A stretch of 64,000 bases of DNA from Acidobacteriota bacterium (GCA_965249865.1 CBDFMZ010000002.1:1483304-1547303); one strand, 5' to 3'. Positions 11,311 through 56,977 are shown, counted from the first letter of the stretch. Notes: generated by a model from the sequence alone, not told the origin. A program made the numbers and translations.

Positions 11311-11474
11311 CAAGCTTAAGAAGATAAATCGATTCAAGCTGCTTGTGATCATAACACGGCTACTAAAGAAAAAAAGCGCCAGTTTTCCAAATTGATACCG
11401 GTTAAGAAGACTGCGAATAGACACTGACCAACATTGAATACCTTCGCAAAAATCACGTACAATGACCTTTATCA

Positions 11475-30317: not shown

Positions 30318-30676
30318 CGGTTAGATCTTCCTAGTGGTACTACTATTGCGGGATTTCCTCCATGTCGGGATCGCGCGAAAGGGTCACGTTCAAGTCATCT
30401 GATAAGCCATCACCGCCGCTTGACAGAGGGCTCTACACCCCTTACCTTGAGTGGGCCGGGCGATCAGAAAACGCCCTTATTACCCTGGAACTGCAGGCCA
30501 CAATCGGAGAGGGTGTGTAACAACATGACCAACCAGTACTTCCAAAACGTCCTGGTCGTGAAGTGGGAGAAGGTTGTCTCAAGTTGTTGCCCTGTCAACA
30601 TTGTTAACTGGATCATTACGACTCGGGATAGCACAATCCGAAAGCGCAAGAACATCTCCGTCAACCACCTAAGTTA

Positions 30677-31219
30677 ATGACCTTCTTTACCGCACAAACG
30701 GCCTTCTATTATATGGCGACGGCTAGCATCACGAGCGCTCTCTTAGCCGTGACGCGAAAGAATCCTGTCCATAGCATGCTTTGGGTGCTGGCCTTATTCC
30801 TGCACGTGGCAGGCATCTTCTTGTTGTTGGGCGCGGAGTTCCTGGCAGCGGTACAGGTCATTGTTTACGCAGGCGCCATTTTGGTTTTCTACCTCATCGT
30901 CCTGATGCTTCTCGACCTGCCGAGCGAGGAGGCTCGGCCCCGGTTCGGCGCCCATTGGCCGTTCGCCGCTGCCGGTGGACTGGGTCTGGTGATAGCCGGG
31001 GCCTGGATCGCCCAGATCGAGAAGCTCGACCCTGTTAGAACGGGAGCGGCGCCAGTTGCTGCAGGTATAGCATCGGAAGCTCCGCCTCCGGGCAGTCTAT
31101 CGCAGGTGGGCATGGCTCTCTTCGGCCCATTCGCCCTACCCTTTGAGATAACCTCACTGGTCCTCCTCGCCGCCATCGTAGGGGCGGTCGCGGTCGCAAG
31201 GAGGAGGGAACGATCATGA
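30677..31219 (+). CDS. nuoJ: NADH-quinone oxidoreductase subunit J
   Basis: A 180-aa membrane protein (...MLWVLALFLHVAGIFLLLGAEFLAAVQVIVYAGAILVFYLIV...) matching the ND6/NuoJ pattern, followed by nuoK with a 4-bp overlap. Confidence 0.8.
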   Translation: MTFFTAQTAFYYMATASITSALLAVTRKNPVHSMLWVLALFLHVAGIFLLLGAEFLAAVQVIVYAGAILVFYLIVLMLLDLPSEEARPRFGAHWPFAAAGGLGLVIAGAWIAQIEKLDPVRTGAAPVAAGIASEAPPPGSLSQVGMALFGPFALPFEITSLVLLAAIVGAVAVARRRERS

Positions 31220-31521
31220 TTGTTCCCCTGGGCGGGGTTCTGGTCTTGAGCGCCGTCCTCTTTGGGATCGGAGTATTCGGCTTTCTGGCCCGGCGCAACA
31301 TCATCCTGATGCTGGTCTCTGTTGAGATAATGCTCAATGCAGTGAACCTCAGCCTAGCCGGATTCAGCCAACACTTCGGTGACCAACGCGGCCAGGTCCT
31401 TGCACTCTTCGTGATTGCCGTTGCAGCTGCAGAGGCAGGAGTCGGTCTTGGTCTTGTGATTGCCTTGAACCGGAACAGGCCTGGTGCCGGCGTGGGTGAC
31501 CTGACCCAGCTCAAATGGTGA
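31216..31521 (+). CDS. nuoK: NADH-quinone oxidoreductase subunit K
   Basis: The 101-aa three-TM protein has the conserved membrane Glu (VEIMLNAVNL...AAAEAGVGL), the ND4L signature. Confidence 0.85.
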   Translation: MIVPLGGVLVLSAVLFGIGVFGFLARRNIILMLVSVEIMLNAVNLSLAGFSQHFGDQRGQVLALFVIAVAAAEAGVGLGLVIALNRNRPGAGVGDLTQLKW

Positions 31522-33006
31522 CTACGATGGAAACAAACGGCATCTTGGTTTCGCTCATGCCACTACTCACAGTACTGGTGCCGGCCGTGGGTGCACTCCT
31601 CATCGCTTTCACTGGGGAAAGGCGAGCCAATTTGAGAGAGTTCTGGTCCGTTGCTGCCGGTGTCCTGATGTTTGCCCTTGTAGTGGGCATGATCCTGGAG
31701 GTCCGGGCTGGCGACACGCCGGAATGTGTACTCTTCCGTATTCTCCCCGGAATTGAACTAGCGTTTCAGGTGGATACCTTTCGGCCTGCTCTTCGCCTCG
31801 GGGGCATCGCTACTATGGATCTTGACCTCGTTTTACTCGATCGGCTATATGCGTTCTCTTCAAGAGCACGCTCAAACCCGCTACTTTTCCTGCTTCGCTC
31901 TGGCTCTTTCTGCCACCGTGGGGGTGGCCTTCTCAGCCAATCTGTTCACCATGTTTCTGTTTTACGAGGCCTTGACCCTGGTTACCTACCCCCTGGTGGG
32001 CCACAAGCAGACGGCCGAAGCCAAGGCAGGCGCCCGCAAATACGTTATTTATCTACTGGGTGCTGCCAAGCTGTTCCTCCTGACCGCCATTATCCTGACC
32101 TACAATGTAACCGGAACCCTGGAGTTTCGCAAAGGCGGGATCCTGTCGGTTGAGCAGATCAGAGAACATCCTATCCTTCTCTATGTGATCTTCGCGCTGT
32201 TCCTTTTCGGATTCGCAAAGAACGCACTTATGCCGCTGCACAGCTGGCTGCCGGCAGCCATGGTGGCCCCCACCCCTGTGAGCGCCTTGCTACATGCCGT
32301 GGCCGTCGTGAAAACCGGAGTGTTCTGCACGCTGAGGGTCTTTCTATTTGTTTTCGGAACTGGCGCGATACACGATCTCGGCGCGGACCACTTGGCACTA
32401 GGAGCAGCCTCGGTCACGATCATTCTTGGGTCGCTCCTTGCGCTTGGGCAAGACAACCTCAAAGCCCGACTGGCTTTCTCCACCGTCAGTCAGCTCTCCT
32501 ATATCATCTTGGGAGCGGCGCTCTTGAACCAGAACGGGATGCTAGGCGGGATAGCCCATATCACCAACCATGCCGTGTCGAAGATTACCCTCTTCTTGTG
32601 CGCCGGCTCTATTTACGTATCATCACATAAGACCGAAATTAGCCAGATGTCTGGTCTTGCCAAGCGTATGCCGTGGACCATGGCTGCGTTTGCTCTTGCG
32701 TCCCTGAGCGTGGTGGGCATTCCTCCTACCTCCGGATTCGTCTCCAAGTGGTACCTGGTACTAGGTTCGGTAGAGCAACACAGCCTTACTTTTTTAGGGG
32801 TACTTCTAGTGAGCTCACTTCTCAACGCTGCGTACCTGGGACCGGTCGTGTATAAGGGATACTTCGAAGAGTCACCGCAGGCACAGGAAGAGGTCCGCGA
32901 GGTTCCCTGGATGGTTGTGCCCTTGACAATCAGCGGGGCCGCAAGCTTGCTCCTAGGCCTTTATCCGAACCCTGTACTGGAGCTAGCCGGGGGGGCTATA
33001 CCGTGA
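31515..33006 (+). CDS. Extra complex-I antiporter-like subunit, MrpD/NuoM-N-type (about 497 aa), with an apparent +1 frameshift near 31776-31795
   Basis: The N-terminus is in frame 0 (...ILPGIELAFQVD). The remainder is in the +1 frame (WIPFGLLFASGASLLWILTSFYSIGYM...HSWLPAAMVAPTPVSALLHAVAVVKTGVF...HITNHAVSKITLF...GFVSKWYL). All canonical antiporter residues are retained (TM5 Glu, TM7 Lys, HxxxHxxxK, TM12 Lys). There is no NuoL-type C-terminal helix. Confidence 0.65.
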
Positions 33007-33266
33007 TTTTTTTTCAAAAGTCCCTGGAAGATCCAGTCCGCTTGGCCCGGCTCAAATATTGGTTCTATATGGGCCTGGCGGCGGCGGCTCTAGCAGAAAT
33101 CGTTGTGCCGGTTGTCTTCCAGGCCGATCATCCCCACTTCTCGTTTGAGCGTTTCCCAGCTTGGGGATCGCTCTATGGATTGGTCTCCTGTCTCGCGATC
33201 GTAGTCGTGTCTAAATTGATCGGGAAGGTGTGGCTCACTCGCCGCGAAGACTATTATGACTCTTGA
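33003..33266 (+). CDS. Small two-TM membrane protein embedded in the nuo antiporter module (87 aa)
   Basis: A GTG start overlaps the stop of the preceding gene, and its own stop overlaps the nuoL start. Two hydrophobic helices (WFYMGLAAAALAEIVVPVVF; LYGLVSCLAIVVVSKLIG). No known Nuo subunit was recognised. Confidence 0.45.
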   Translation: MIFFQKSLEDPVRLARLKYWFYMGLAAAALAEIVVPVVFQADHPHFSFERFPAWGSLYGLVSCLAIVVVSKLIGKVWLTRREDYYDS

Positions 33267-35022
33267 GTGGATCCACCCAGGGCTTTTGCTGATCCTAGGC
33301 TCTTGGGGATTACCCTTCCTTCAAGGCCGTGCCAAACGGTTGGCTATGCTCCTCCTGCCTGCCGGGTCACTGGCTATCTGCCTCAGCATGACGCCAGGCA
33401 ACTATGGCGAGGTCAGTTTCCTCGGACAGGTTCTTGTGTTTGGTCGAGTGGACAAGTTAAGTCTAATCTTCTCCTATGTCTTCTCGATCATGACCTTTCT
33501 CGGCATGGTGTACGCCCTCCATGTGAAGGAGGATGCTCAGCACGTAACGGCACTGACCTATGCGGGGGCTGCACTCGGGGTGACGTTTGCTGGGGATCTC
33601 CTCTCCCTGTATGTGTTCTGGGAACTCCTGGCGATCTCATCGGTGCTTCTGATTTGGCAGTGCCGGAAACCGGCTGCGGTGGCAGCCGGTTTCCGCTACC
33701 TCCTGATTCACGTCTTTGGGGGGCTTATCCTCCTGGCAGGAATTATACTGCACTGGTCCCAAACCGGGTCGATCGCCTTCGTGGAAATGGGTCCTTTTGC
33801 CAGCGGGCCGGCCTGGGTTTTGATCCTGTTGGCCTTCCTGCTCAACGCCGCGGTACCGCCCCTTGGAGCATGGCTCCCGGATGCCTATCCGGAAGCTACG
33901 GTCACGGGCGCAGTCTTCATGACTGCTTTCACCACCAAGTCCGCAGTCTACGTCTTGATTCGGGGCTTCCCCGGATCCGAGCTTCTGGTCTGGCTGGGAG
34001 CCGCAATGGCCGTCTACGGTGTGGTATACGCTGTGTTGGAAAACGACGCGCGCCGTTTGCTAGCCTACCATATCATAAGCCAAGTTGGCTACATGGTCTG
34101 CGGAGTGGGAATCGGGACCGCACTGGCCCTAAACGGCGCTGCAGCCCACGCATTCGCGCACATCATCTACAAAGGTCTCCTCTTCATGGGAGCCGGCGCC
34201 GTCCAGGAGGTGACTGGACACAGAAAACTAAGTGATATGGGTGGGCTCTACAAGACCATGCCGATCACCCTCGGCCTCTATCTGGTAGGCGCCTTCGCCA
34301 TTTCAGCCGCGCCTTTCTTTAGTGGTTTCGTGAGCAAGTCCATGGTGGTCTCTGCCGCCGGTGATTCCCACCGAACGCTGGTTTTTCTCATGCTCACTCT
34401 AGCGTCTTCCGGAACGTTTCTTCACACGGGCCTTAAACTCCCATACTACATGTTCTTCGGCAAAGATTCAGGCCTACGCGGCCAGGAGCCACCTAGGAAC
34501 ATGCTTGTGGCTATGGGCTTGGCTGCAATTGTGTGCATAGGGATAGGGATCTTCCCTGGCCTACTTTACCGGTACCTTCCTCAGCCGGTCGACTACGCCC
34601 CATACACCTTGCAGCACATCACGGCCACCTTGGGAATGTTGGGCTTCACAGCCCTGGGTTTTTTCCTGCTGCTCAAACATCTCGACCCTGAGCCCAAGAT
34701 CAGCCTTGACACAGACTGGTTTTACCGCAAAGGTTTTTCGGCCGCCATAGGCCTAACCCAAAGCCCACTGAAACGTCTAGAGTCTAGCTTTGTGGGGGAG
34801 ATCTATGAGGCTGTCGTGCGGCGTCTCGTGTTAGGTGGTGCGGCTCTCATGCGCAGGTTTGACACTCACGTCGTTGATTCCACAGCGCTGGGCATAGGTC
34901 GATTGACCCAGGCCTTCGGTCAAATTTTGAAGACCACGGTAAGCGGCAACACCCAACACTACGGGTTAATCATGATTGCGGGTGTCTTATTGTTGCTCGT
35001 TCTAGCAGTACTTGCACTATGA
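33256..35022 (+). CDS. nuoL: NADH-quinone oxidoreductase subunit L (with C-terminal long-helix region), divergent core
   Basis: The product is 588 aa. LAYHIISQVGYM, AAAHAFAHIIYKGLLF (H..H..K) and GFVSKS (TM12 Lys) are NuoL-like. The C-terminus DTHVVDSTALGIGRL...NTQHYGLIMIAG matches the NuoL horizontal-helix/TM16 region. The TM7 KSAQ Lys position reads LLNAAVPPLGAWLPDA (Lys to Asn), and GPTPVSALIH is replaced by EATVTGAVFM. Confidence 0.7.
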   Translation: MTLEWIHPGLLLILGSWGLPFLQGRAKRLAMLLLPAGSLAICLSMTPGNYGEVSFLGQVLVFGRVDKLSLIFSYVFSIMTFLGMVYALHVKEDAQHVTALTYAGAALGVTFAGDLLSLYVFWELLAISSVLLIWQCRKPAAVAAGFRYLLIHVFGGLILLAGIILHWSQTGSIAFVEMGPFASGPAWVLILLAFLLNAAVPPLGAWLPDAYPEATVTGAVFMTAFTTKSAVYVLIRGFPGSELLVWLGAAMAVYGVVYAVLENDARRLLAYHIISQVGYMVCGVGIGTALALNGAAAHAFAHIIYKGLLFMGAGAVQEVTGHRKLSDMGGLYKTMPITLGLYLVGAFAISAAPFFSGFVSKSMVVSAAGDSHRTLVFLMLTLASSGTFLHTGLKLPYYMFFGKDSGLRGQEPPRNMLVAMGLAAIVCIGIGIFPGLLYRYLPQPVDYAPYTLQHITATLGMLGFTALGFFLLLKHLDPEPKISLDTDWFYRKGFSAAIGLTQSPLKRLESSFVGEIYEAVVRRLVLGGAALMRRFDTHVVDSTALGIGRLTQAFGQILKTTVSGNTQHYGLIMIAGVLLLLVLAVLAL

Positions 35023-36482
35023 CAGCTTCCCCGATTTTGACAGTCATAACCTTTCTGCCTCTCGTCGGCGCGATCCTTATACTGCTCTTTCGCAGCGAGC
35101 AGCTATCGCGCTGGATTGCACTGGCCACCACGCTGGCCACCCTGGCTGTCTCGACCCCGCTCTACTGGAGCTTCGACAAGACCTCAAGCACCCTGCAATT
35201 CGTCGATTCTGCGGACTGGATCCCGACGTGGAACATCTCCTATCGAATGGGTGTGGACGGACTCAGCCTCCCATTTATCTTCCTCGCAGCGCTCCTAAGC
35301 CTCCTGTGTGTTGGTGCCTCATGGACCGCGGTCAGCACGAAAGTACGAGAGTTTTACGGGGTGCTCCTATTTGCCGAAACCGCAATGATCGGGCTCTTCG
35401 CTGCTGCAAATCTTTTTCTTTTCTTTATCTTCTGGGAACTCATGATCATCCCCATCTTGATCCTCATCGGTGTCTGGGGCGGCTCAGAACGAGTCTACGC
35501 CGCAGTCAAGTTTTTGCTTTTCACGCTGGCCGGCAGTGTGTTGATGTTGGTGGGCATAATCACCCTCTACCACACTTGCGGTACTCTGGACTTCAAAGCC
35601 CTTGCCAGATTTGGGCTTCAGCCCGAGCTACAGGCCTGGCTCTTCCTAGCATTCCTGACTGCCTTCGCCGTCAAGGTACCCATGTTCCCAGTGCATACAT
35701 GGCTCCCGGACGCTCACACCCAGGCTCCTACCGCGGGGAGCGTGATCTTGGCCGGGATCCTTCTGAAGATGGGGGCCTATGGATTCCTACGGATTTCACT
35801 GCCCATACTTCCCGACGCCGTGCAGCTCTTCCTCTATCCAATGCTCGTCGTCTCTGCAGTTGCCATCGTCTATGGCGCCTACGTGACCTTAGCCCAAACG
35901 GACCTCAAGCGCCTCATTGCTTATTCGAGTGTCAGCCACATGGGCTTTGTCACCCTGGGTATTTTTACCCTCAACCGCAACGGTGTCGAAGGCGCGATCC
36001 TGCAAATGATCAACCACGGAATCATCAGCGCCGCTCTTTTCTTGTGTGTCGGCATAATCTACGAGCGCACCCACACACTGGATATTAAGGAATACGGTGG
36101 AGTTGCCAAAAACGCTCCTGCTTATTCCACTTTCTTGGCTCTCTTCTGCCTGGCCGCTGCTGGATTTCCGGGTTTGAACTCTTTCGTAGGGGAGTTCCTC
36201 ATCATCGGAGGGGCGTTCGAAACCACGGCCTGGCTTGGGGCAATGGCCGTCTGGGGAGTTGCCTTGGGAACAGCTTACTTGGTTTGGCTCTACTACCGGG
36301 TCGTCATGGGAGAGATGAACCCAGGCCTTGAAGGGCTCAAACTCGAGCTTAACATCCGTGAGGTGGCGACTTTGGCCCCTCTGGCCTTCCTCGCCTTGTA
36401 TCTGGGTCTCTACCCTGAGTGTGTGCTTTCCTATCTTCGCGTTCCCGTCGCCGAACTCTTGGCTGCTGGAGCCACGCCATGA
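35019..36482 (+). CDS. nuoM: NADH-quinone oxidoreductase subunit M
   Basis: HTWLPDAHTQAPTAGSVILAGILLKMGAYGF is the diagnostic NuoM/ND4 motif. The 487-aa product has ATGA overlaps on both sides. Confidence 0.9.
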   Translation: MTASPILTVITFLPLVGAILILLFRSEQLSRWIALATTLATLAVSTPLYWSFDKTSSTLQFVDSADWIPTWNISYRMGVDGLSLPFIFLAALLSLLCVGASWTAVSTKVREFYGVLLFAETAMIGLFAAANLFLFFIFWELMIIPILILIGVWGGSERVYAAVKFLLFTLAGSVLMLVGIITLYHTCGTLDFKALARFGLQPELQAWLFLAFLTAFAVKVPMFPVHTWLPDAHTQAPTAGSVILAGILLKMGAYGFLRISLPILPDAVQLFLYPMLVVSAVAIVYGAYVTLAQTDLKRLIAYSSVSHMGFVTLGIFTLNRNGVEGAILQMINHGIISAALFLCVGIIYERTHTLDIKEYGGVAKNAPAYSTFLALFCLAAAGFPGLNSFVGEFLIIGGAFETTAWLGAMAVWGVALGTAYLVWLYYRVVMGEMNPGLEGLKLELNIREVATLAPLAFLALYLGLYPECVLSYLRVPVAELLAAGATP

Positions 36483-37888
36483 ACCTAGGTGACCTAACCC
36501 TAATCTTACCGGAGCTGATTCTGGTTACTGCCGCATTGGCGTTCATCCTTGCGACGCGCCGAATCCGAAGCGCACCTGTATTCACGGTAGGGGCGGTTTT
36601 AGCTGGGCTGGCAGCTGCCTCAAGCTCGGTTTGGCTCCTGCCAGGGACACCCAAGACGGGGTTCGGAGACATGATCATCTTGGACGGCTACTCCCAATTC
36701 TTCAAGGTTCTCATCGCGTTTGCCCTAGTCCTCGCTGTACTTCTGTCGGTAAACCGGTACGACGCAGGACATGTTCGGTCCGGTGAGTACCATGCTTTGC
36801 TCCTCTTGGCCACGACGGGAATGATGTTCGCGGCCTCAGCCCTCGATTTCCTGACCCTATACTTGAACCTCGAGCTCATGACTCTTTGTTCGTACATCTT
36901 AGTTGGGATCACGGTCGAGAAGTCGGTATCAAACGAGGCTGCGGTCAAGTACCTCCTCCTGGGTTCCTTCGCTTCGGCTCTGCTCCTCTACGGGATCGCC
37001 CTGACTTACGGAGTTACGGGTACTACGAACTTTACAGGTATTGCCTCGGCTCTCTCAGCGCACGGATTAGGAAATAACCACATCCTTTTGGCGGCGGTTG
37101 GTCTGTTGGTCGCGGGGCTTGCATTTAAGATTGCGGCGGTCCCGTTTCATGCCTGGGCGCCGGACGCTTATCAGGGCGCGAGCGCTCCGGTCGCAGCCTT
37201 TTTGGCAACCGCCTTCAAGGCCGCTGGCTTTGCCGCACTGGGACGGGTCTGCCTGGTCGCATTGCCTACTGCCCATACTTTACCCGTCGTTCTGATGGGC
37301 CTCGCCACGCTCTCCCTAGTCGTGGGAAGTGTCATTGCCCTGTCCCAAACGAACATGAAACGCTTATTGGCATATTCCTCGATTGCACATGCCGGCTACG
37401 CCCTTCTGGGCTTGATTTCCGGGACACCCGAAGGAGCTTCGGCTACCATGACCTATGTCTTCCTATATGTCTTCATGACGTTGGGGGCCTTTGGCGTTGT
37501 CATCGCACTGGGTGAACGAGGGGAAAGCTTGGACGGTTATCGTGGTATAGCCGCGCAACGGCCAGGAACAGCCGCTCTCATGCTACTTTTCCTCCTTTCC
37601 CTGACCGGAATCCCGCCCACAGCCGGATTCGCGGCCAAGTTTCTCGTGATTCTCAGCGTGATCCGCGCAGACCATTTGGTGTTGGCAGTCCTGGCCGTAG
37701 TCTGTAGTGTGATCTCGGCCTTCGTCTACCTGCGTGTGGCGGTTCTCATGTACATGAAGGAACCACAGGAACCCGAACCCTCGGGCTACCCGCTGGCGAT
37801 CTCTGCCGTGCTTGCTGTGGCGGCTCTGGTCACGGTGATCGGGGGAATTTTCCCAGATAACCTCACCTTTTGGGCGGTGGCCCCGTGA
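36479..37888 (+). CDS. nuoN: NADH-quinone oxidoreductase subunit N
   Basis: HAWAPDAYQGASAPVAAFLATAFKAAGFAAL is the diagnostic NuoN/ND2 motif. The start was set at ATG 36479 (MNLGDLTLILPEL), which overlaps the nuoM stop. Confidence 0.85.
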   Translation: MNLGDLTLILPELILVTAALAFILATRRIRSAPVFTVGAVLAGLAAASSSVWLLPGTPKTGFGDMIILDGYSQFFKVLIAFALVLAVLLSVNRYDAGHVRSGEYHALLLLATTGMMFAASALDFLTLYLNLELMTLCSYILVGITVEKSVSNEAAVKYLLLGSFASALLLYGIALTYGVTGTTNFTGIASALSAHGLGNNHILLAAVGLLVAGLAFKIAAVPFHAWAPDAYQGASAPVAAFLATAFKAAGFAALGRVCLVALPTAHTLPVVLMGLATLSLVVGSVIALSQTNMKRLLAYSSIAHAGYALLGLISGTPEGASATMTYVFLYVFMTLGAFGVVIALGERGESLDGYRGIAAQRPGTAALMLLFLLSLTGIPPTAGFAAKFLVILSVIRADHLVLAVLAVVCSVISAFVYLRVAVLMYMKEPQEPEPSGYPLAISAVLAVAALVTVIGGIFPDNLTFWAVAP

Positions 37889-37895
37889 TGAGAAC

Positions 37896-37922
37896 GAGCA
37901 CCGGGTTGCGGCGATGGTGCTC
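37896..37922 (+). terminator. Terminator-like hairpin after nuoN
   Basis: GAGCACC-(13 nt)-GGTGCTC is a 7-bp perfect stem 8 nt after the nuoN stop, followed by TCTTCC, a weak U-tract. Confidence 0.35.
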
Positions 37923-37928
37923 TTCCGT

Positions 37929-37958
37929 ATAATGCGTATAGTGTGAAATAGGTATAAT
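37929..37958 (+). promoter_or_regulatory. Tandem TATAAT -10-like boxes upstream of nuoA
   Basis: cgTATAATgcg (37929-37934) and ggTATAATgtg (37953-37958) sit 21-45 bp upstream of the nuoA ATG at 37979. No clean -35 was identified. Confidence 0.35.
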
Positions 37959-37978
37959 GTGAAAACGATGGTCCAGCG

Positions 37979-38332
37979 ATGAGCGAGTACATCGGTATAG
38001 CAGTCTGTTTTGCCCTAGCCGGAGGCATCACGACAGCTATGGTGTTACTGGCTTCCACCTTGGGTGAGAAGAAGCCCTCACCCGTGAAGTCAGAAACGTT
38101 CGAGTGCGGGAACAAACCCTTCTCTCACCCGAGCGGGAAGTTGGCAATCAAGTTCTATTTGACTGCGATTCTGTTCATCTTATTCGATGTTGAGCTCATC
38201 TTCCTATATCCGTGGGCCGTTATCTACCGCAAGATTGGGATGGTGGGTCTAGTAGAGATGGGGGTCTTTCTGAGCATTTTGATGGTAGGCTACATCTACG
38301 CTTGGGACAACGGTGCCCTGGAGTGGCAGTGA
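37979..38332 (+). CDS. nuoA: NADH-quinone oxidoreductase subunit A
   Basis: The 117-aa three-TM protein (...FECGNKPF...KFYLTAILFILFDVELIFLYPWA...) matches the NuoA/ND3 consensus. Confidence 0.9.
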   Translation: MSEYIGIAVCFALAGGITTAMVLLASTLGEKKPSPVKSETFECGNKPFSHPSGKLAIKFYLTAILFILFDVELIFLYPWAVIYRKIGMVGLVEMGVFLSILMVGYIYAWDNGALEWQ

Positions 38333-38333
38333 T

Positions 38334-38834
38334 ATGCTGAACGATTCGTTCTTAACCAGTCGCCTAGATAAGGCCCTTGGCTGGGCCCGAAAGTTTTCCA
38401 TCTTCCAGTACCCCTTTGTTACCGCCTGCTGCGGGATGGAGTATATGGCAACAGCCTGTTCTCACTATGACGTCGACCGCTTTGGAGCGGGCTTTCCCCG
38501 GTTTTCTCCGCGCCAAGCCGACGTGCTTTTCGTGGTGGGCACGATCAGTCACAAGATGGCACCCGCCCTCAAACGCATCCACGACCAGATGGCCGAGCCG
38601 AAATGGGTCGTTGCTTTTGGAGTCTGCACCTGTACGGGCGGCTTCTATGACAACTATGCAACCGTGATGGGTATTGACACGATCATGCCGGTGGATATCT
38701 ACATTCCGGGTTGCCCACCGAGGCCGGAGTCCGTTCTGGACGGGCTAATGAAGCTCCAGGAAAAGATTCAAAACCAACACACCACAGGCCAACGATCCGC
38801 ACCTGAGCCTCGCCCGGACTCCTTCAAACAATGA
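38334..38834 (+). CDS. nuoB: NADH-quinone oxidoreductase subunit B
   Basis: ACCGMEYM, GVCTCTGG and PGCPPRPE are the N2 Fe-S cluster Cys motifs of NuoB. The start was placed at ATG 38334 (MLNDSF...). Confidence 0.9.
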   Translation: MLNDSFLTSRLDKALGWARKFSIFQYPFVTACCGMEYMATACSHYDVDRFGAGFPRFSPRQADVLFVVGTISHKMAPALKRIHDQMAEPKWVVAFGVCTCTGGFYDNYATVMGIDTIMPVDIYIPGCPPRPESVLDGLMKLQEKIQNQHTTGQRSAPEPRPDSFKQ

Positions 38835-39412
38835 ATAACCCTTCTTTGATTGAGTCTGTCCGTGAACGCTTCCCCGGTGCGGTGTCGACTTCTCACGCCT
38901 ACCGTGGCGACGAAACAGTCGTTCTGCGCCCGGAGTTTCTCCTCGAGGTCGCACGGTTCCTCAAAGAAGATCCGTCCCTGCGGATGAATTTCCTCATGGA
39001 CTTGACCGCTCTGGATTACTCCACCTTTGGCAAAAGTCCTGCGCCGGCTTTCTTTGCTTCCTCGGGTATAACGCTGCGTCCCTTATCCGAGATCCCGGAT
39101 GCGGAACCGTGGCCTGGTCCGCCGGAACAAACACGCTTCGCCGTGGTGTACCACTTCTATTCTCTGAAGCACAAACACCGCCTCAGGCTGGTGGTCTTGG
39201 TGGAAGAGACCGAGCCTGAGCTGGATTCCCTGACCGCATTGTGGGCTGGTGCAAACTGGCTCGAGCGGGAGGTTTGGGACATGTTTGGTATCCGATTCCG
39301 AGGACATCCCGATTTGAAACGAATTCTGATGTACGAAGAGTTCGAAGGACACGCTCTGCGTAAGGACTACCCCGTGAACAAGCGGCAACCCCTGATCGGT
39401 CCGACCAACTGA
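38831..39412 (+). CDS. nuoC: NADH-quinone oxidoreductase subunit C
   Basis: ...WAGANWLEREVWDMFGIRFRGHPDLKRILMYEEFEGHALRKDYPV is the conserved NuoC/30-kDa C-terminal block. Confidence 0.85.
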   Translation: MNNPSLIESVRERFPGAVSTSHAYRGDETVVLRPEFLLEVARFLKEDPSLRMNFLMDLTALDYSTFGKSPAPAFFASSGITLRPLSEIPDAEPWPGPPEQTRFAVVYHFYSLKHKHRLRLVVLVEETEPELDSLTALWAGANWLEREVWDMFGIRFRGHPDLKRILMYEEFEGHALRKDYPVNKRQPLIGPTN

Positions 39413-39421
39413 TGGTAATCC

Positions 39422-39697
39422 GTGGGTCGGTATGTCTTTGGTCTATGGTTCTCCGATGACAACCAGTTCCTCGTGCTTTACTCGGAATCTCATTCGTCGT
39501 CGAGGACAGAAACGATGAGCTTGGACCTTGTCCAGGACTGGAATACGGCAACAATTGCAATTACAACGACCACCATTGAGGGTCTGTGGGTTGTTGGGTT
39601 GCCGGATATTGCCAATGTACGTGGCCCTAAGAAATATCCTCTTCTGAACACCGAGCATCTTTTTGGAGCGATAGTCCAAAGATCCATTAAGCCCTAG
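39422..39697 (+). CDS. Small hypothetical ORF (91 aa) in the atypical 325-bp nuoC-nuoD spacer
   Basis: The ORF fills most of the spacer and no family was recognised. It may be non-coding. Confidence 0.2.
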   Translation: MGRYVFGLWFSDDNQFLVLYSESHSSSRTETMSLDLVQDWNTATIAITTTTIEGLWVVGLPDIANVRGPKKYPLLNTEHLFGAIVQRSIKP

Positions 39698-39737
39698 ACC
39701 CATGAAACCATGCACCCACACACCCACCTCCCCCCCC

Positions 39738-41099
39738 ATGGAGACATCCCAGACGACTTTGAGCAACACCCCGGATCTCGAGACGCGCGATATGATGCTC
39801 AACATTGGCCCAGCCCACCCGGCTATGCACGGCATCATTCGGATCGTGGCCGAGCTCGATGGAGAGCAAATCCGAAGCGCCGAAGTAGAAATCGGCTACC
39901 TTCACCGTGGCTTTGAAAAAATGGCGGAAGTGGTGGATTACAATGGTGTAGTACCCTACACTGACCGGCTCAACTACGTCTCCCCGCTCATAAACAACAT
40001 GGGATACTGCATGACCGTGGAAAAACTGCTCGGGATCTCGGTCCCCGAGCGCTGCCATTACATACGGATCATCGTCTCGGAAATTTCCCGGATCACGGAC
40101 CACCTCACCTGCGTGGGGGCGACCGCCATGGAGTTGGGGGCCTTTAGCGTCTTTCTCTACCTAATCAAGGCCCGCGAGTATCTCTGGGATCTTGTGGAGA
40201 TGGTGACCGGAGCACGTTTGACAGTCAGCTACTGCCGCGTGGGCGGAGTGAAGGCGGACCTTCCCAAAGATTTTTCCGAGGCTTGCCACAAGGCATTCGA
40301 GGAGACACGCAAGGTTCTCGGCGAGGCGGATGGACTCCTCACTCGCAACCGTATCTTCACAGACCGAATGAAAGGAACAGGCGTGATCTCCGTTGAAGAC
40401 GCCATCTCCTATGGAATCACAGGCCCCTTTCTTCGTGCCAGCGGCGCGGACTACGACGTACGTAAGGACTGCCCATATGCCGTCTACGAGCGGCTGCCTT
40501 TCGATGTTCCGGTGGGAACCCATGGGGACAACATGGATCGTTACCTCGTACGTATGGAGGAGATGGAACAGTCTATGCGCATCGTGGAGTCAGCGCTGCG
40601 AGACATGCCGAGCGGTCCGATTCTTACAAATCCTGAGACAGGACGGCCCATCCCAGCCGCGGATATGGTGGACCTGGCCAAGGTAGGTAACATAGAGACC
40701 ATAACAGGTGGATGTGCTGTGGTCGGTCCAACTCTCAGTGGCTCTGGTCGCGCCCAGCATCCCTCGATAGCTGCTGATGAAAAAAGGGCCTTTCTCCCTC
40801 CCAAAGAGGACACCTACGGCAACATCGAAGGACTCATGAACCATTTCAAGCTGGTCATGTTCGGCCACGGGGTTCGACCGCCCAAGGGAGAGGTCTACTT
40901 TCCTGTGGAAGGGGCGAACGGAGAGCTCGGGTTTTACGTGGTGAGCGACGGAGCAGGACGTCCCTACCGAGTTCGGGTTCGTCCGCCCTGTTTCGCCATC
41001 ATGTCGGCCCTATCCAAGCTCCTGGTCGGAGATATGATGGCCGATATGATCCCCACCTTCGGATCGGTCAATATGATCGGAGGAGAGCTCGATCGATGA
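39738..41099 (+). CDS. nuoD: NADH-quinone oxidoreductase subunit D
   Basis: MMLNIGPAHPAMHGIIRIVAELDGE...RLNYVSP is the NuoD/49-kDa N-terminal motif. The start is ambiguous (39702 or 39738), and a C8 homopolymer sits just upstream. Confidence 0.85.
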   Translation: METSQTTLSNTPDLETRDMMLNIGPAHPAMHGIIRIVAELDGEQIRSAEVEIGYLHRGFEKMAEVVDYNGVVPYTDRLNYVSPLINNMGYCMTVEKLLGISVPERCHYIRIIVSEISRITDHLTCVGATAMELGAFSVFLYLIKAREYLWDLVEMVTGARLTVSYCRVGGVKADLPKDFSEACHKAFEETRKVLGEADGLLTRNRIFTDRMKGTGVISVEDAISYGITGPFLRASGADYDVRKDCPYAVYERLPFDVPVGTHGDNMDRYLVRMEEMEQSMRIVESALRDMPSGPILTNPETGRPIPAADMVDLAKVGNIETITGGCAVVGPTLSGSGRAQHPSIAADEKRAFLPPKEDTYGNIEGLMNHFKLVMFGHGVRPPKGEVYFPVEGANGELGFYVVSDGAGRPYRVRVRPPCFAIMSALSKLLVGDMMADMIPTFGSVNMIGGELDR

Positions 41100-41160
41100 G
41101 TATTTTAGATCAGTGAGTCTCACAAATTAAACCCATGAACCTATAAACCAACAAAGAATA

Positions 41161-42957
41161 ATGACCGCGGATTTAGAAGCAAAGGCTCAGCAGATCCTTA
41201 AACTTTACGAGCAACCTAAGGCAGCGATGCTACCGCTCTTATGGCTCGTCCAGGAGAATCAAGGCTATGTATCCCAGGAAGCGGAGACTTGGGTGGGACA
41301 CATCCTGGGTGTGACTCGTTCCCATGTGCGCGAAGCGATCTCTTTCTACACCATGTTCCACACCAAACCAGTGGGCAGACGCGAGCTTCGGGTCTGCACG
41401 AGTCTACCTTGTCTTTTGCGCGGTTCTACGGATGTACTGGGTCAAATCAAGGAAAATCTGAAGATTAGCCCCGGGGAGACCAACCCGGGTCAAGAGGTCA
41501 CCCTCACAGAAGTTGAGTGTTTGTGCGCCTGCGAAATGTCACCGATGGCCCAACTCGACGAAGCCTTCATCGGACCTCTCGAAGGAGAGACCATGGATGC
41601 TGTTCTTCGGGCCTCACTCGAAAATCCTGAATACTCGAATCCTTTACCAGAACCTGAACCTTTCATCTCTACCAATGGGCCAGTGCTCTCCATGCGCTTC
41701 AAGGATCGGGACGGGACTTGGTTGGAAGACTACCTTGCTGACGGTGGATATCTAGCGGCCAAGAAGGCTCTCACCTCAATGGCCCCAGAACAGGTGATCG
41801 AGGAGATCTCCAAAGCCAACTTGCGCGGTCTGGGTGGGGCGGGGTTTCCAGCCGGCAGGAAATGGTCCTTTATTCCCAAAGACACGACCAAACCAAAGTA
41901 CCTGGTAGTCAATGCAGACGAGGGTGAACCAGGCACCTTCAAAGACCGCTACATCATGGAGCGGGATCCGCACGCCCTAGTCGAAGGCATGATTATTTCA
42001 GCCTATGCCATCGGCAGCCACAAAGCCTATGTTTACGTCCGGGGCGAGTACTTCCGGCCGGCTAAACGTTTGCAGCACGCCCTGGATGAGGCCTATGGCC
42101 AGGCGTGGTTAGGCAAGAATATCCAGGGGACCGGTTTTGATTTAGACGTTGTCATTCACCGAGGTGCCGGGGCGTATATCTGCGGAGAAGAGACCGCGCT
42201 CTTGACATCGCTCGAGGGTGGAAAGGGCTTTCCTAGGCTCAAGCCTCCCTTTCCGGCCATTTCGGGCCTGTTCTCCTGCCCTACCATCGTCAACAATGTG
42301 GAGACTCTAGCCTGCGTCCCATTCATCGTGCGGAACGGAGCAAAACATTTTGCCGACATTGGCACGGCCAAACAGGGCGGCACCCGACTCTTCTGCGTTA
42401 GCGGACACGTAGCCCAGCCCGGCCTCCATGAGGCGCCGGTCAGCATAACCCTACGGGAACTCATCGCCGCCGCCGGTGGTGTCCGGGATGGCAAGCAGCT
42501 CAAGGCCGTCATTCCTGGTGGCATCTCAGCCAAGATACTGACGGCCGATGAGATCGACGTAACCATGGACTTCGACTCCCTTATGGCCGCCGGAAGCATG
42601 GCAGGATCCGGAGGAGTGATCGTGATGGACGAGACAACGTGCATGATCGATATACTCTTATCAGCGACCCGGTTCTTCGCCCATGAGTCTTGCGGACAAT
42701 GCTCACCGTGCCGCGAGGGGACCGGTTGGGTCTATCGCATAGTACGCCGAATCGTCGAGGGGCGTGGGAGTCTGAAAGACCTGGACGACCTCCTCGCCAT
42801 TGCCGGCGACATGGAAGGGAATACTATTTGTGTCTTCGCCGATGCAGCTGCCTGGCCGGTCCAATCCTACATCACGAAGTTTCGGAACGAGTTTGAGGAG
42901 TACATTCAGAGTCACCGTGACACTGGGAAGAAGGAGGTATCCGAATGCCCAGTCTAA
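41161..42957 (+). CDS. nuoEF: Fused NuoE-NuoF (24-kDa 2Fe-2S subunit fused to 51-kDa NADH/FMN subunit)
   Basis: The first ~160 aa (CTSLPC...ECLCAC, a thioredoxin-like 2Fe-2S pattern) is followed without a stop by the NuoF motifs GLGGAGFPAGRKWSF (FMN/NADH site) and ESCGQCSPCREGTGW (N3 4Fe-4S). Length is 598 aa. Confidence 0.85.
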   Translation: MTADLEAKAQQILKLYEQPKAAMLPLLWLVQENQGYVSQEAETWVGHILGVTRSHVREAISFYTMFHTKPVGRRELRVCTSLPCLLRGSTDVLGQIKENLKISPGETNPGQEVTLTEVECLCACEMSPMAQLDEAFIGPLEGETMDAVLRASLENPEYSNPLPEPEPFISTNGPVLSMRFKDRDGTWLEDYLADGGYLAAKKALTSMAPEQVIEEISKANLRGLGGAGFPAGRKWSFIPKDTTKPKYLVVNADEGEPGTFKDRYIMERDPHALVEGMIISAYAIGSHKAYVYVRGEYFRPAKRLQHALDEAYGQAWLGKNIQGTGFDLDVVIHRGAGAYICGEETALLTSLEGGKGFPRLKPPFPAISGLFSCPTIVNNVETLACVPFIVRNGAKHFADIGTAKQGGTRLFCVSGHVAQPGLHEAPVSITLRELIAAAGGVRDGKQLKAVIPGGISAKILTADEIDVTMDFDSLMAAGSMAGSGGVIVMDETTCMIDILLSATRFFAHESCGQCSPCREGTGWVYRIVRRIVEGRGSLKDLDDLLAIAGDMEGNTICVFADAAAWPVQSYITKFRNEFEEYIQSHRDTGKKEVSECPV

Positions 42958-44618
42958 GCATCGACAACCGCGACATAAACGTGCCTGAGGGAACCACCGT
43001 CATCCAGGCCGCAGAGACACTGGGGATTTACATTCCGCGTTACTGCTACCACCCGGGGCTATCCATCGCGGGAAACTGTCGTATCTGCCTCGTGGAAGTG
43101 GAAAGGTTCCCCAAGCTCCAGATTGCCTGTAACACGCTCGCGACCAAGGGGATGGTTGTGCACACCAAAAGCCGCAAGGCCGAAGCCGGCCAGCGCGCTG
43201 TGCTGGAGTTCCTTCTAGCCAACCACCCGCTCGACTGCCCGGTCTGCGACCAATCCGGCGAATGTGACCTACAAAATTTCTACATGAATTTTGGGCTCTA
43301 TAATCCGCGGTTCCGAGAACACAAGGTTAAAAAGAAAAAAGCCGTGCAACTGGGCCCCCATGTAATGTTGGACCAAGAGCGCTGTATCCTCTGTTCCCGC
43401 TGTGTGCGCTTCACAGACGAGATCTCCAAGACTGGAGAGTTCGGCATTTTTAATCGTGGGGATCGGGCTGAGTTGGGACTCTACCCTGGCGATGTACTCG
43501 ATAATCCCTACTCGGCCAACGTGGTAGATATCTGCCCCGTGGGAGCACTCACCGAAAGTGATTTTCGTTTCAAGACTAGGGTCTGGTACCTCTCCAGCGC
43601 CCCTACGCTCTGCAACGGCTGTAGCCAAGGATGCAACATGGATATCCATTTCGTGCTCGACCGACCTCATCTGAACAACGGAGCTCGGGTCCTACGCGTC
43701 AAGCCCCGCTATAATCCGGACGTCAATCAATGGTGGTTGTGCGATGAGGGGCGCTACGGCTTTGGCTGGCTGGATCAGGCACGGTTGAATAAGGTACGTG
43801 GACCGTCAGGAGAGGCTACCTGGGAGCAAGCCCTCACAGAGATCTCAACTGCCTTGAAAGGCTCGGACCAGGAAGAGGCCCTTGGGCGAAACACGGCCAA
43901 GGACGAGAGAGGGGCCTACGGTAAAATTGGTGTGATTATCTCCGCCCGACTAACCAGCGAGGAGCTATTTCTGATCCGGGAGATTTTTCAGCGTGTCCTG
44001 GGTGCACAAGTTAGCGCCTCTATCGTGGAGGAAAAAGGGTCCTGTGATGACTTCCTGATCAGGGGAGACAAAAATCCGAACACCCTAGGCGCAACCTGGT
44101 TGGGCTTGGCGGGTCGAGACACACCAGACGCCAGTCAGATTGTGGACCAAGCATTAGACGGAAAACTCGAGGTCCTGTGGGTCTTCGGTCACGATCTGGT
44201 GAAACTTTTCGGGGTAGAGAAAGTCCGAAAGCTCTCAGAAAAATTGCGGCTCTTCGTTTTTTCCGGCACCAACGAAAACCCGACGGTGGCTTTGGCCCAT
44301 TGGGTCCTACCTACTGCAGCCTATGTGGAGAAGGACGGCACCTTCGTGAACTGCCAAGGTCGAATTCAACGCATCGGGCGAGCCTTTCCGCCACTCCATC
44401 ACTCCCGAGAGGACTGGCGTATCCTCCTGGAATTAGCCGGGAAATTGGGTCTGCCGCTCGATTGGCACACCCCGGAGGATATCTTCCAAGGGCTTGCCAG
44501 TGTGTTAGCACCTTTCCAAGGATTGAGCTATGAAAAGATCGGAGCTCAAGGAGTTGACGTCGAGACGACCAAGTCCACCTCAGGGGCAACTGCACCACAA
44601 TGGAAATTTTTCTCATAA
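42945..44618 (+). CDS. nuoG: NADH-quinone oxidoreductase subunit G (short form, 557 aa)
   Basis: N-terminal 2Fe-2S (CYHPGLSIAGNCRIC), then HPLDCPVCDQSGECDLQ and CILCSRCVRF 4Fe-4S motifs. It is shorter than the 700-900 aa proteobacterial forms. Confidence 0.85.
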   Translation: MPSLSIDNRDINVPEGTTVIQAAETLGIYIPRYCYHPGLSIAGNCRICLVEVERFPKLQIACNTLATKGMVVHTKSRKAEAGQRAVLEFLLANHPLDCPVCDQSGECDLQNFYMNFGLYNPRFREHKVKKKKAVQLGPHVMLDQERCILCSRCVRFTDEISKTGEFGIFNRGDRAELGLYPGDVLDNPYSANVVDICPVGALTESDFRFKTRVWYLSSAPTLCNGCSQGCNMDIHFVLDRPHLNNGARVLRVKPRYNPDVNQWWLCDEGRYGFGWLDQARLNKVRGPSGEATWEQALTEISTALKGSDQEEALGRNTAKDERGAYGKIGVIISARLTSEELFLIREIFQRVLGAQVSASIVEEKGSCDDFLIRGDKNPNTLGATWLGLAGRDTPDASQIVDQALDGKLEVLWVFGHDLVKLFGVEKVRKLSEKLRLFVFSGTNENPTVALAHWVLPTAAYVEKDGTFVNCQGRIQRIGRAFPPLHHSREDWRILLELAGKLGLPLDWHTPEDIFQGLASVLAPFQGLSYEKIGAQGVDVETTKSTSGATAPQWKFFS

Positions 44619-45694
44619 AGCTCGTGTTGGCGGGGATCGTTTTTTTCGCGGTCTTAAACTTCGCAGGACTCCATACCTGGGTGGAACGGAAACAGTCCGC
44701 TCTCATCCAGGACCGGATCGGGGCTAACCGAGCCGACATCTTTGGATTCCGATTCTTGGGAGTCTTCCACGGCATCGCCGATGCGATCAAGATGTTCACT
44801 AAGGAGGACATCGTACCTGAGAGAGCAGACAGGACGCTGCACACACTGGCTCCCTTATTCTCGGTCTTCTTCGCTCTGGTGGCCTTTGCCGCAATCCCGT
44901 TTGGAGACCGCTTCATCATGGAAAGCGGCCGGATTATAGAACTCCAAGTGGTCAAGCTGGACGTAGCCCTGCTCTACGTCTTTGCCATGCTCTCTCTGGG
45001 AGTCTATGGTGTGATTCTTGCTGGGTTTGCCTCGGGCAACAACTACGCAATCCTGGGAGGATTAAGGGCCACCGCACAGATAATCTCCTATGAGATCGCC
45101 CTGGGCATCTCCGTCATTGGCGTGGTTATGGTCTACGGGACCATGGATCTGTCTGAGCTAGTGCGGGCTCAAGGCCAGATGATTGGCGGTTGGATCCCTT
45201 TCTGGGGTTTCCTAGTCCAACCCGTGGCCTTCGTGGTCTTCATAACCGCAGCACTGGCTGAAACCAAGAGGCTTCCGTTTGACCTGCCGGAAGCGGAGCC
45301 CGAAATCATTGGGTACTTCGTGGAGTACAGCGGAATGAAGTTCGGCATGTTCTTCCTCACAGACTTCCTGGAGACCATCATGGTGGCATGCCTGGGAACC
45401 ACACTTTTTTTCGGCGGGTGGCAGGTGCCCTTCCTCGAACCGAACGGCTTCCACTTCCCTTGGGGAGGTGAGCTCTTGGTCTCCCAATTGGTCTATGTCT
45501 TACTCGGGGTTTTGAGCTTCTCGATCAAGGTTGTGATCTTTTGCTGGTTCTTCATGCAAATTCGCTGGACTCTGCCGCGTTTCCGTTACGATCAACTTAT
45601 GAAGCTAGGCTGGAAGGCTCTCTTCCCGATTTCGGTGGTCAACGTCGTAGTAACAGGCGTGGTACTGGTCTTTTTCGGGGAGGTGCCTTCATGA
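44600..45694 (+). CDS. nuoH: NADH-quinone oxidoreductase subunit H
   Basis: ERKQSALIQDRIGANR...GIADAIKMFTKED...YEIALGISVIGVVM are the ND1/NuoH signatures. Confidence 0.9.
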   Translation: MEIFLIKLVLAGIVFFAVLNFAGLHTWVERKQSALIQDRIGANRADIFGFRFLGVFHGIADAIKMFTKEDIVPERADRTLHTLAPLFSVFFALVAFAAIPFGDRFIMESGRIIELQVVKLDVALLYVFAMLSLGVYGVILAGFASGNNYAILGGLRATAQIISYEIALGISVIGVVMVYGTMDLSELVRAQGQMIGGWIPFWGFLVQPVAFVVFITAALAETKRLPFDLPEAEPEIIGYFVEYSGMKFGMFFLTDFLETIMVACLGTTLFFGGWQVPFLEPNGFHFPWGGELLVSQLVYVLLGVLSFSIKVVIFCWFFMQIRWTLPRFRYDQLMKLGWKALFPISVVNVVVTGVVLVFFGEVPS

Positions 45695-46314
45695 CCGTAA
45701 AAGTTGTCCGGAGACCCGAGCTGAATTTCTGGGAAAAACTCTATCTCCCCCAGATCTTTTCGGGCCTTAAGATAACCACCAGACACTTCTTCCGTAACCT
45801 TTTTCTCCACATTGCCCACCTTGTGGGTTGTTTCAAGCACTTTCCCGCCTCTGTCACCATCCAATATCCCGAGGAGTTGAGGCCCCTAATGTCGCGATTC
45901 CGCAGCCGCCACCGACTCACCCTCCGCGAGGACAACACCCCCCGCTGCGTGGGATGCATGCTCTGCGAGACGGTCTGCCCGGCCAAGTGCATCACCATCG
46001 TGCCCGGAGAACACCCTGAACCCCACGTCGAGAAGTATCCACTTCGCTTTGACATCGACCTTGGCGTCTGCGTCTACTGTGGTTACTGCGTTGAGGTGTG
46101 CCCTGAGGACGCGATCCGAATGGACACTGGAATTCTGGACATAGCGGCATACTCAAGGGAAGAAATGAAACTAGACATCCATGAACTCATGGACCCCAAG
46201 CTTCGTAAACCGATCCACGAATGCAGCCTGAAATTCCCTCACCAGTGCGGGTTAGCCGATGGAAAGATGAGGGGTAGTTGGGAAAAGATAAAGGGTCGTA
46301 GGGCAGGTCATTAA
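45691..46314 (+). CDS. nuoI: NADH-quinone oxidoreductase subunit I
   Basis: Two CxxCxxCxxxCP ferredoxin motifs (CVGCMLCETVCP; CVYCGYCVEVCP). The start was set at ATG 45691 (MTVKVV), which overlaps the nuoH stop. Confidence 0.9.
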   Translation: MTVKVVRRPELNFWEKLYLPQIFSGLKITTRHFFRNLFLHIAHLVGCFKHFPASVTIQYPEELRPLMSRFRSRHRLTLREDNTPRCVGCMLCETVCPAKCITIVPGEHPEPHVEKYPLRFDIDLGVCVYCGYCVEVCPEDAIRMDTGILDIAAYSREEMKLDIHELMDPKLRKPIHECSLKFPHQCGLADGKMRGSWEKIKGRRAGH

Positions 46315-49600: not shown

Positions 49601-49793
49601 CGAACTGCTAGCTCTGTTGAAGAAACAAACCGCCCGTTTCGCCCAGGGATGGGTCAGCCCCTGGGACATCGCCGGTTTTGAAGAAAACCAAAAACCACAA
49701 CTCCCCGCTGATACGACTCCTGTCCAGTTAGCCGCCTGGACTGCGGTCTCTCGAGTTTTATTGAATCTAGATGAAACCATCACGAAGGAATGA
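46614..49793 (+). CDS. PSCyt1 (CxxCH cytochrome-c-like) / DUF1549 / DUF1553 domain protein
   Basis: Signal peptide, then the PSCyt1 heme-binding motif [11 protein letters not shown]. The 1059-aa length and the trailing DUF1501 partner gene match the planctomycete-type PSCyt/DUF1549/DUF1553 architecture. Confidence 0.75.
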
Positions 49794-56572: not shown

Positions 56573-56973
56573 AGCCGGTGGGCCGTAGCATCGGCCTCCT
56601 TCTGATGAATTTTCTTAACCCAAACGGGTGCTTCGGTGACGTTTTCCAGCACCGTCATATGAGGAAAGAGGTTGAATTGCTGGAAAACCATGCCCATCTT
56701 ACCGTGTAACCGTCGCATATTCTTTTCAGTGCCGGACGTCAACTTTTTCTCTCGACCGGCTTGAAAGAGTTCTCCCTCGATCTCAATAGTACCGTCGTCG
56801 ATGGTTTCCAAGCCGATCACACAACGCAGCAGCGTAGTCTTTCCGGAGCCACTGGCGCCGATGATCACCAACTTTTCGGAGCGAGTGACCGTCAGATCGA
56901 CGCAATCCAGAACTTTCAGGTCACCGTACCGTTTGTCCACGTTACTCAAGCGAACCATCACGTCTGTGGCCAT
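56485..56973 (-). pseudogene. Truncated amino-acid ABC ATPase (Walker A and Q-loop only; signature and Walker B missing)
   Basis: MVRLSNVDKRYGDLKVL...[14 protein letters not shown]...MVFQQFNLFPHMTVLENV, after which the frame decays. The expected LSGGQ and Walker B blocks are not encoded downstream. Confidence 0.55.
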
Positions 56974-56977
56974 GGCG

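Follow-up and report, generated by a model that had tools for sequence, protein, structure and literature searches.

The complex I variant known as green complex I was reportedly defined in rhizobia in 2016 (Degli Esposti & Martinez-Romero), and is said to be marked by a 'peculiar rearrangement of gene order'. On plasmid pT173d of Ensifer canadensis, as annotated in RefSeq, nuoJ and nuoK are followed by a gene for an 'antiporter subunit D family' protein, a hypothetical protein of 84 amino acids (aa) and a 'Na+/H+ antiporter subunit D', and then by nuoM and nuoN. After nuoN there is a gap of 154 nucleotides (nt) before nuoA-B-C-D-E-F-G, with nuoH and nuoI on the other strand, and the same order is found on pSymA of S. 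meliloti (SMa1545-SMa1523). The canonical nuoA-N or nqo operon of E. coli and Thermus thermophilus differs in running in the order A to N behind one upstream promoter and in having a single NuoL. The subject here is a region of 15 genes on the + strand at 30677-46314 of a 64-kb window of Acidobacteriota DNA (the window being the whole stretch that was analysed), in which the order is J-K-X-small-L-M-N and then A-B-C-D-EF-G-H-I. We put at about three in four the probability that this region codes for a single, complete NADH:quinone oxidoreductase of the green type of complex I, a figure that includes the model in which an internal promoter before nuoA is combined with read-through from nuoN.

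Gene order and family assignment

Genes were called from a listing of open reading frames (ORFs) together with Pfam and NCBIfam profile searches of the window, and the profile searches confirmed the order on one strand that an initial annotation of this DNA had given, J, K, (X, small, L), M, N, A, B, C, D, EF, G, H, I. Relatives were collected by a scan for NuoN, with one genome taken per species, which gave 489 relatives, of which the best 80 are used here as loci L001-L080. The host labels of these best 80 are Acidobacteriota (Vicinamibacteria, Terriglobia, Bryobacterales and Thermoanaerobaculia), Planctomycetota, Dadabacteria and others, and the nearest NuoN among the matches listed comes from a metagenome-assembled genome (MAG) of an Acidobacteriota, at 84% identity. 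The order J-K-X-small-L-M-N is present in 80/80 loci and is followed by A-B-C-D-EF-G-H-I wherever the contig allows a view. The permuted order, which had been noted as the reverse of the canonical one, is by this synteny comparison a clade-wide norm already catalogued as green complex I; it is the fixed layout of that family and is not peculiar to this genome. The cluster in the window is a further example of an already described variant, and there is nothing new in the order itself.

It is apparent that the likeness to the rhizobial clusters goes beyond the order of the genes. When the window was compared with the Ensifer cluster by tblastn all 15 products matched, at 33-59% identity and collinear from J to G, with the MrpD-like pair the best conserved at 57-59% identity. 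The product labelled 'L' is 59-60% identical to its homologues on megaplasmids of Ensifer, Rhizobium and Sinorhizobium, which are its best plasmid matches. Both kinds of cluster have the arrangement J-K-MrpD-small-MrpD-M-N, a spacer and then A-G, with two MrpD-like genes replacing NuoL, and in both the N-A spacer is a non-overlapping one, being 154 nt long in Ensifer and 215 nt in S. meliloti. The features by which green complex I is recognised are thus present in the window, namely two MrpD-like genes, the rearranged order, a small ORF between the two and a similarity to the rhizobial cluster that was judged by identities, subunit by subunit. With the canonical operon the window shares the core subunits A-K, M and N, the cofactor-binding domains and a tight translational coupling, but it has the J-N block first, a three-gene module for NuoL and an internal promoter-like spacer, and is not of the canonical type.

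There are also differences from the rhizobial form. The window has a fused nuoE-nuoF, whereas the two genes are separate in the rhizobial cluster, NuoG is 557 aa long as against ~872 aa (a 2619-nt gene) in Ensifer, and nuoH-nuoI come after nuoG without a change of strand, which in Ensifer does occur. NuoD of the window has, relative to rhizobial NuoD, an insertion of ~50 aa (NPETGRPIPAADMVDLAKVGN...EKRAFLP; window 40620-40790), and the hosts of clusters of the window type are Acidobacteriota or Planctomycetota-like. The fusion of E and F is found in 68/69 loci, the short NuoG and the collinear H-I are likewise traits of this clade, and the NuoD insertion is kept in every related Acidobacteriota or Planctomycetota locus that was aligned. 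The EF fusion, the short NuoG and the collinear H-I are treated here as differences between sub-lineages.

The module in place of NuoL

The gene upstream of nuoM had been labelled as NuoL, a label that had to be given up. 'L' (33256-35022, + strand, 588 aa) scores 738.9 bits on the MrpD-type NCBIfam model PRK12668, 'Na+/H+ antiporter subunit D', which has a curated cut-off of 564, and X (31515-33006, + strand), which is read in two frames, scores 555 + 55 bits on PRK08375.1-1, covering positions 5-81 and 96-489 of the 493 in the profile. On the NuoL model TIGR01974, with a cut-off of 407.5, both fall below, X with 193 bits and 'L', far below, with 142 bits. The NuoM model TIGR01972 (cut-off 263.8) is passed by one ORF only, that at 35019-36482 (+ strand) with 587.9 bits, which is nuoM, and X and 'L' reach 189.5 and 146.2 bits on it.

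MbsH (6u8y_H) and MrpD (7qru_D) are the best solved homologues of X, and NdhF, MrpD and MbsH' those of 'L', for which none of the nearest solved structures is better than E = 5e-37. 'L' aligns end to end with Nqo12 (4he8_L, residues 65-581) and with mycobacterial NuoL (8e9g_L, residues 62-587), the C-terminal extension included, and is the predicted functional stand-in for NuoL, complete with a C-terminal extension of the NuoL type. Between X and 'L', in a position that is conserved, lies the small ORF of 87 aa (33003-33266, + strand), the product of which has no match in Pfam, NCBIfam or the PDB but which, as read from its sequence, has two hydrophobic stretches predicted to span the membrane. 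It was found in 78/80 loci, and the 84-aa 'hypothetical protein' that takes its place in Ensifer shares 37% identity with it. NuoL is replaced here by three genes, an MrpD-like gene, the gene for the small protein and a second MrpD-like gene. The membrane arm should consequently have four antiporter-like subunits (N, M, MrpD1 and MrpD2) and not three and, by analogy with other four-pump complexes, the ratio of H+ per 2e- might be raised from 4 to ~5.

A fourth antiporter-like subunit in the membrane arm, along with a predicted higher H+/e- ratio, is also a feature of the Nitrospira-type 2M complex I. In that part of the description by Chadwick et al. (2018) which is relayed in PMC9040806, the extra subunit is a duplicated NuoM and NuoL carries a lateral-helix insertion of 26 aa. 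The window is different in that it has one ORF passing the NuoM model and an extra subunit that is MrpD-like, and the alignment of 'L' with MrpD2 of Ensifer takes 574 columns for 572 residues, so that there is no 26-aa insertion; it is not a 2M complex I. Complex_I_3 of 'Ca. Manganitrophaceae' resembles the window in that MrpD-like subunits of the green type replace NuoL, but it has five pumping subunits (two NuoM, two MrpD-like and NuoN) and a lengthened lateral helix, where the window has four (PMC9040806). Among the nearest solved relatives of both MrpD-like subunits are proteins of the Mrp antiporter and of the MBS and MBH modules (7qru, 6u8y, 6cfw), and in MBS too a plain antiporter-like subunit is paired with one that bears a lateral helix, although the pair in the window sits within a full cluster for an NADH-oxidising complex I with NuoEFG.

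The nuoN-nuoA junction and transcription

The two halves of the cluster meet at a spacer of 90 nt (37889-37978, + strand) that has the look of an internal promoter region. N|A is the only junction in the family with a positive median spacing, which is 70 nt, with 71/75 spacers longer than 30 nt and all other medians at or below 0. The initial annotation had noted a hairpin and two TATAAT hexamers here, and these are present as it described, the hexamers at 37928-37933 and 37953-37958 (25 nt start to start), along with a third box, TATAGT, at 37937-37942. The first of the hexamers forms a promoter-like element with TTGCGG (37906-37911) across a 16-nt spacer. As TATAAT occurs only 13 times on both strands of the 64-kb window, 7 of these on the + strand, two copies within 90 nt are not expected by chance.

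The box is also conserved among the relatives, for which the spacer statistics were taken over the window and 75 relatives, 76 sequences in all. Within the 70 nt upstream of nuoA a coding-strand TAnAnT is found in 54/76 sequences, against 13 on the opposite strand and 13 +/- 3.2 (maximum 23) in shuffled sequences, and its modal position is -26 relative to the nuoA start. The bases directly before it are T in 37/52 and G in 39/52 distinct sequences. In the alignment of the window with its closest relatives (L001, L007 and L009) GGGTTGC and TATAATG are invariant and 16 nt apart, while the rest of the spacer drifts. A -10 hexamer, a -35-like box at 16-18 nt and conservation, as expected of a sigma-70-type promoter, are thus all found upstream of nuoA. 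The TTGCGG-16-TATAAT element was not listed by a simple consensus promoter scan, because its -35-like box matches at 3/6 positions.

In five relatives there are inserts of 1.4-6 kb exactly at N|A, and in 5/5 of these the box is still directly upstream of nuoA. The insert holds two transposases (DDE and IS110) in L023 (11.9-14.6 kb), a UPF0236 gene in L028 (~13.9-15.2 kb) and pntB with an alanine dehydrogenase/PntA-type gene in L049 (11.2-13.8 kb), and in L011 (11.6-13.3 kb) a serine recombinase is found at the junction. As such inserts separate nuoA from nuoN, the expression of A-I in those clusters would hardly be possible without a promoter at nuoA. In L011 and L017 the A-I block is absent within 8-10 kb downstream, and the N|A junction appears to be a hot spot for insertion and rearrangement. 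On these observations, together with a start mapped in S. meliloti (below), the A-I block is very probably transcribed from a promoter of its own.

A side observation concerns tandem heptamers, GTTCCAC/GTTCCAG, which occur in 3-5 copies just 5' of the TGTGTATAAT box in six relatives of one sub-clade (L029, L012, L080, L008, L026 and L009) and are absent in the window; they might be a binding array for a regulator or a simple repeat.

Upstream of nuoJ a second promoter-like element is found at 30420-30448 on the + strand, with TTGACA (30420-30425), a 17-nt spacer and TACCTT (30443-30448), and a promoter function for it is suggested by the fact that the block is kept in L011, L017, L006 and L009 at 81-86% over ~55 nt. 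Between TACCTT and nuoJ there is a leader of ~225 nt, partly conserved in the same four loci. ORFs of 85, 94 and 110 aa upstream of nuoJ were considered as genes and rejected, since they match no family and their similarity in relatives is weak and patchy, and this stretch is taken as a non-coding leader. A search of the entire window against Rfam with gathering thresholds found no matches, be it in this leader, the N-A spacer or the C-D spacer.

In the model that we favour the cluster would consist of two translationally coupled blocks joined at N|A and encoding one enzyme. The promoter before nuoJ (TTGACA-17-TACCTT) would drive the membrane-arm block J-N and, as there is no terminator after nuoN, transcription probably continues from nuoN into A-I. 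The conserved internal promoter (TTGCGG-16-TATAAT with the further -10 boxes) would then add extra, or separately regulated, A-I transcripts, with overlaps of stop and start codons coupling translation inside each block. The view that the two blocks are separately transcribed units is supported as far as it concerns a promoter for A-I (TAnAnT in 54/76 against ~13 expected), but not in its requirement for a terminator after nuoN.

It could be argued that the whole cluster is one polycistronic operon with its sole promoter upstream of nuoJ, and that the TAnAnT/TG motif is a regulator site, an element for RNA processing or stability, or the relic of an ancestral operon start. This would fit with the lack of a terminator between N and A, with an operon prediction for S. 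meliloti that groups N2 and A2 in one unit, with the TG that abuts the box in a non-canonical register and with the TGTACA-type half-palindromes seen in several spacers. It is however an unlikely explanation, as the box stays beside nuoA where insertion sequence (IS) elements or unrelated genes, some of them on the opposite strand, intervene after nuoN, and as the motif shows a strand bias of 54 to 13. It is also at odds with data from S. meliloti 1021, in which sequencing enriched for primary transcripts has mapped a start (mTSS SMa_TSS2147) at 845781, a position 75 nt upstream of nuoA2 that falls within the 215-nt N2-A2 spacer homologous to the one discussed here (PMC3616915). Transcription starts were mapped upstream of nuoJ2 too (PMC3616915).

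Still less probable are two fully separate operons, with the J-N transcript ending at the hairpin in the spacer and nuoA-I transcribed solely from the tandem TATAAT boxes. The hairpin and the boxes are certainly in the spacer, and the halves of the cluster do lie apart in some relatives, that is in L011 and L017, which lack A-I within 8-10 kb downstream, and in the five loci with inserts of 1.4-6 kb. The hairpin itself, which had been described as terminator-like and as splitting the cluster, does not stand up as a terminator. Its arms, GAGCACC (37896-37902) and GGTGCTC (37916-37922), make a 7-bp stem with a 13-nt loop, it is followed by TTCCGTAT with no U-tract, and it was not called by a terminator scan. 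Its fold is no better than chance, with a z-score of +0.74 and 153/200 shuffles folding at least as well. In the alignment with L001, L007 and L009 the arms are neither conserved nor matched by compensating changes, and a hairpin of any kind with a T-rich tail after nuoN was found in only 2/80 relatives. Many N-A spacers among the relatives are just 28-45 nt long, which leaves no room for both a terminator and a promoter. With the conserved -35-like TTGCGG contained in its loop the hairpin is, on these comparisons, a chance inverted repeat across the -35-like box and not a terminator, and the arrangement of two promoters with read-through is retained.

Gene map, frameshift and flanking genes

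All of the genes that follow are on the + strand. The cluster begins with nuoJ (30677-31219; Pfam Oxidored_q3, E = 1.3e-37) and nuoK (31216-31521; Oxidored_q2, E = 9.2e-26), which overlap at an ATGA. After the three genes of the MrpD-like module and nuoM, nuoN occupies 36479-37888 (TIGR01770, 405.4 bits), and translation probably begins at the ATG at 36479, which overlaps the end of nuoM as ATGA. The second block starts with nuoA (37979-38332; Pfam Oxidored_q4, E = 4.3e-36), nuoB (38313-38834; Oxidored_q6) and nuoC (38831-39412; Complex1_30kDa) and, after a non-coding spacer of 289 nt (39413-39701), continues with nuoD (39702-41099; TIGR01962, 472 bits in two stretches). The fused nuoE-nuoF (41161-42957) is a single ORF with the domains 2Fe-2S_thioredx, Complex1_51K, SLBB and NADH_4Fe-4S. 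It is followed by the short nuoG of 557 aa (42945-44618), which has Pfam Fer2_4, NADH-G_4Fe-4S_3 and Fer4_Nqo3 and a partial Molybdopterin domain, by nuoH (44600-45694; NADHdh, E = 4.3e-103) and by nuoI (45691-46314), which has Fer4 domains and truly starts with the ATG at 45691, where it overlaps nuoH as ATGA.

Most junctions had been described as overlapping or with a GTG start, and this is so for the ATGA junctions J/K, L/M, M/N, B/C and H/I, for the GTGA at X/small and for the overlaps of 7-20 nt at K/X, small/L, A/B, EF/G and G/H. What had been missed is that two more junctions besides N-A do not overlap, C-D (289 nt) and D-EF (61 nt). The C-D spacer is 71% identical to that of L001 and shorter in L007 and L009, while most of the family overlaps at C-D. 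An ORF of 91 aa within it (39422-39697) was tried as a gene and rejected, as it has no family matches and the longest ORF in the counterpart region of L001 is 56 aa; it is probably not a gene.

The first MrpD-like gene, X, is broken by a single inserted base (a +1 frameshift) in GAT ACC TTT C GGC at ~31779-31782. Relatives read GAT ACC TTT GGC or GAT ACC TTC GGC at this site, and are in frame in 73/74 comparable loci. The insertion most likely reflects an error of sequencing, or else an inactivating mutation of very recent date. Programmed +1 frameshifting was considered and rejected, as the site lacks conservation and no rare codon is involved, the CGG that follows the shift site accounting for 49/217 Arg codons. 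Frameshifts of their own in nuoN and the first MrpD-like gene, at other positions, are carried by two MAG loci, L007 (~11270-11630) and L075 (~5860-5960 and 10001-12066), and such scattering is the pattern expected of assembly errors.

That the cluster is a decaying pseudo-operon, or that +1 slippage on UUU-C is programmed and regulates the fourth pump, is very improbable, for although X is interrupted, re-pairing of tRNA-Phe from UUU to UUC is formally possible and the window has a second damaged gene (a truncated ATPase of an ATP-binding cassette (ABC) transporter at ~56488-57144), every other nuo gene of the window is intact at 58-92% identity to relatives, the shift is missing in 73/74 related loci and so marks no conserved programmed site, the CGG codon is not rare and the frameshifts of L007 and L075 are like those from assembly.

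Directly 3' of nuoI lies a gene (46614-49793) for a PSCyt1-PSCyt2-PSD1 protein of 1059 aa, with cytochrome domains of the planctomycete type, which is syntenic in no related locus. Synteny with related loci was looked for in the flanking genes, this one and lipoyl synthase, and was found in none. Further away, the ABC-transporter ATPase gene (56488-57144, - strand) appears truncated after ~130 residues, with LSGGQ and Walker B in no frame, and runs into the start of a gene for a fusion of solute-binding protein and permease; it is likely a deletion or a pseudogene. At 14.7-16.1 kb a frameshift had been suspected among the sirohaem genes but was rejected, as these are two separate genes.

Distribution and meaning of the cluster

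A number of points weigh against the reading of this region as a green complex I with an internal promoter. Membership of the family is drawn from secondary citations and from sequences of rhizobia that were compared directly, and the promoter function is read from sequence conservation and a distant homologue. The 80 loci are mutually related, so that the count of 54/76 overstates the number of independent observations. The TG abuts TAnAnT and is not one base off from it as in an extended -10, and the box may therefore be something other than a sigma-70 -10. A -10 box was looked for upstream of the nuoA2 start in S. meliloti and no convincing one was found. A caution given in the S. meliloti study itself is that processing could account for some of the 5' ends that were mapped (PMC3616915). 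Lastly, if the frameshift in X is real, the enzyme may be defective or down to three pumps.

The subunits of loci L001-L080 are ~60-90% identical between genomes that are labelled as different phyla, and synteny ends at the cluster. The high identity across phyla, together with the lack of flanking synteny, suggests that the cluster as a whole has been transferred horizontally, or else that MAGs carry wrong labels.

In the literature search, which covered sources other than the text of the defining 2016 paper, the order was described nowhere outside rhizobia, and no description of such clusters in Acidobacteriota or Planctomycetota was found. It is tentatively proposed, at somewhat less than even odds, that the Acidobacteriota and Planctomycetota clusters form a lineage of their own within green complex I that has apparently not been described, with a fused NuoEF, an insertion in NuoD, a truncated NuoG and 15 collinear genes. 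Its two modules would each be driven by a promoter, with N|A serving as a conserved site of regulation and as an insertion hot spot, and the lineage would have moved horizontally and possibly been the source of the rhizobial copies.

The permuted order is diagnostic of a type of complex I with four predicted pumps, for which there is no solved structure. In the literature searched its published placement so far is in rhizobia only, plus a hybrid form in Manganitrophus, and the finding that Acidobacteriota and Planctomycetota of soil and sea commonly have the same cluster widens the range in which the enzyme can be looked for. There is also a lesson for annotation, in that genes called 'Na+/H+ antiporter subunit D' between nuoK and nuoM are those of complex I subunits and not of Mrp antiporters. 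The proposed conserved internal promoter provides a testable model for the separate expression of the membrane-arm genes and those of the Q- and N-modules. For slow-growing bacteria the enzyme may have a bearing on obtaining more proton-motive force per NADH, or on running complex I in reverse.

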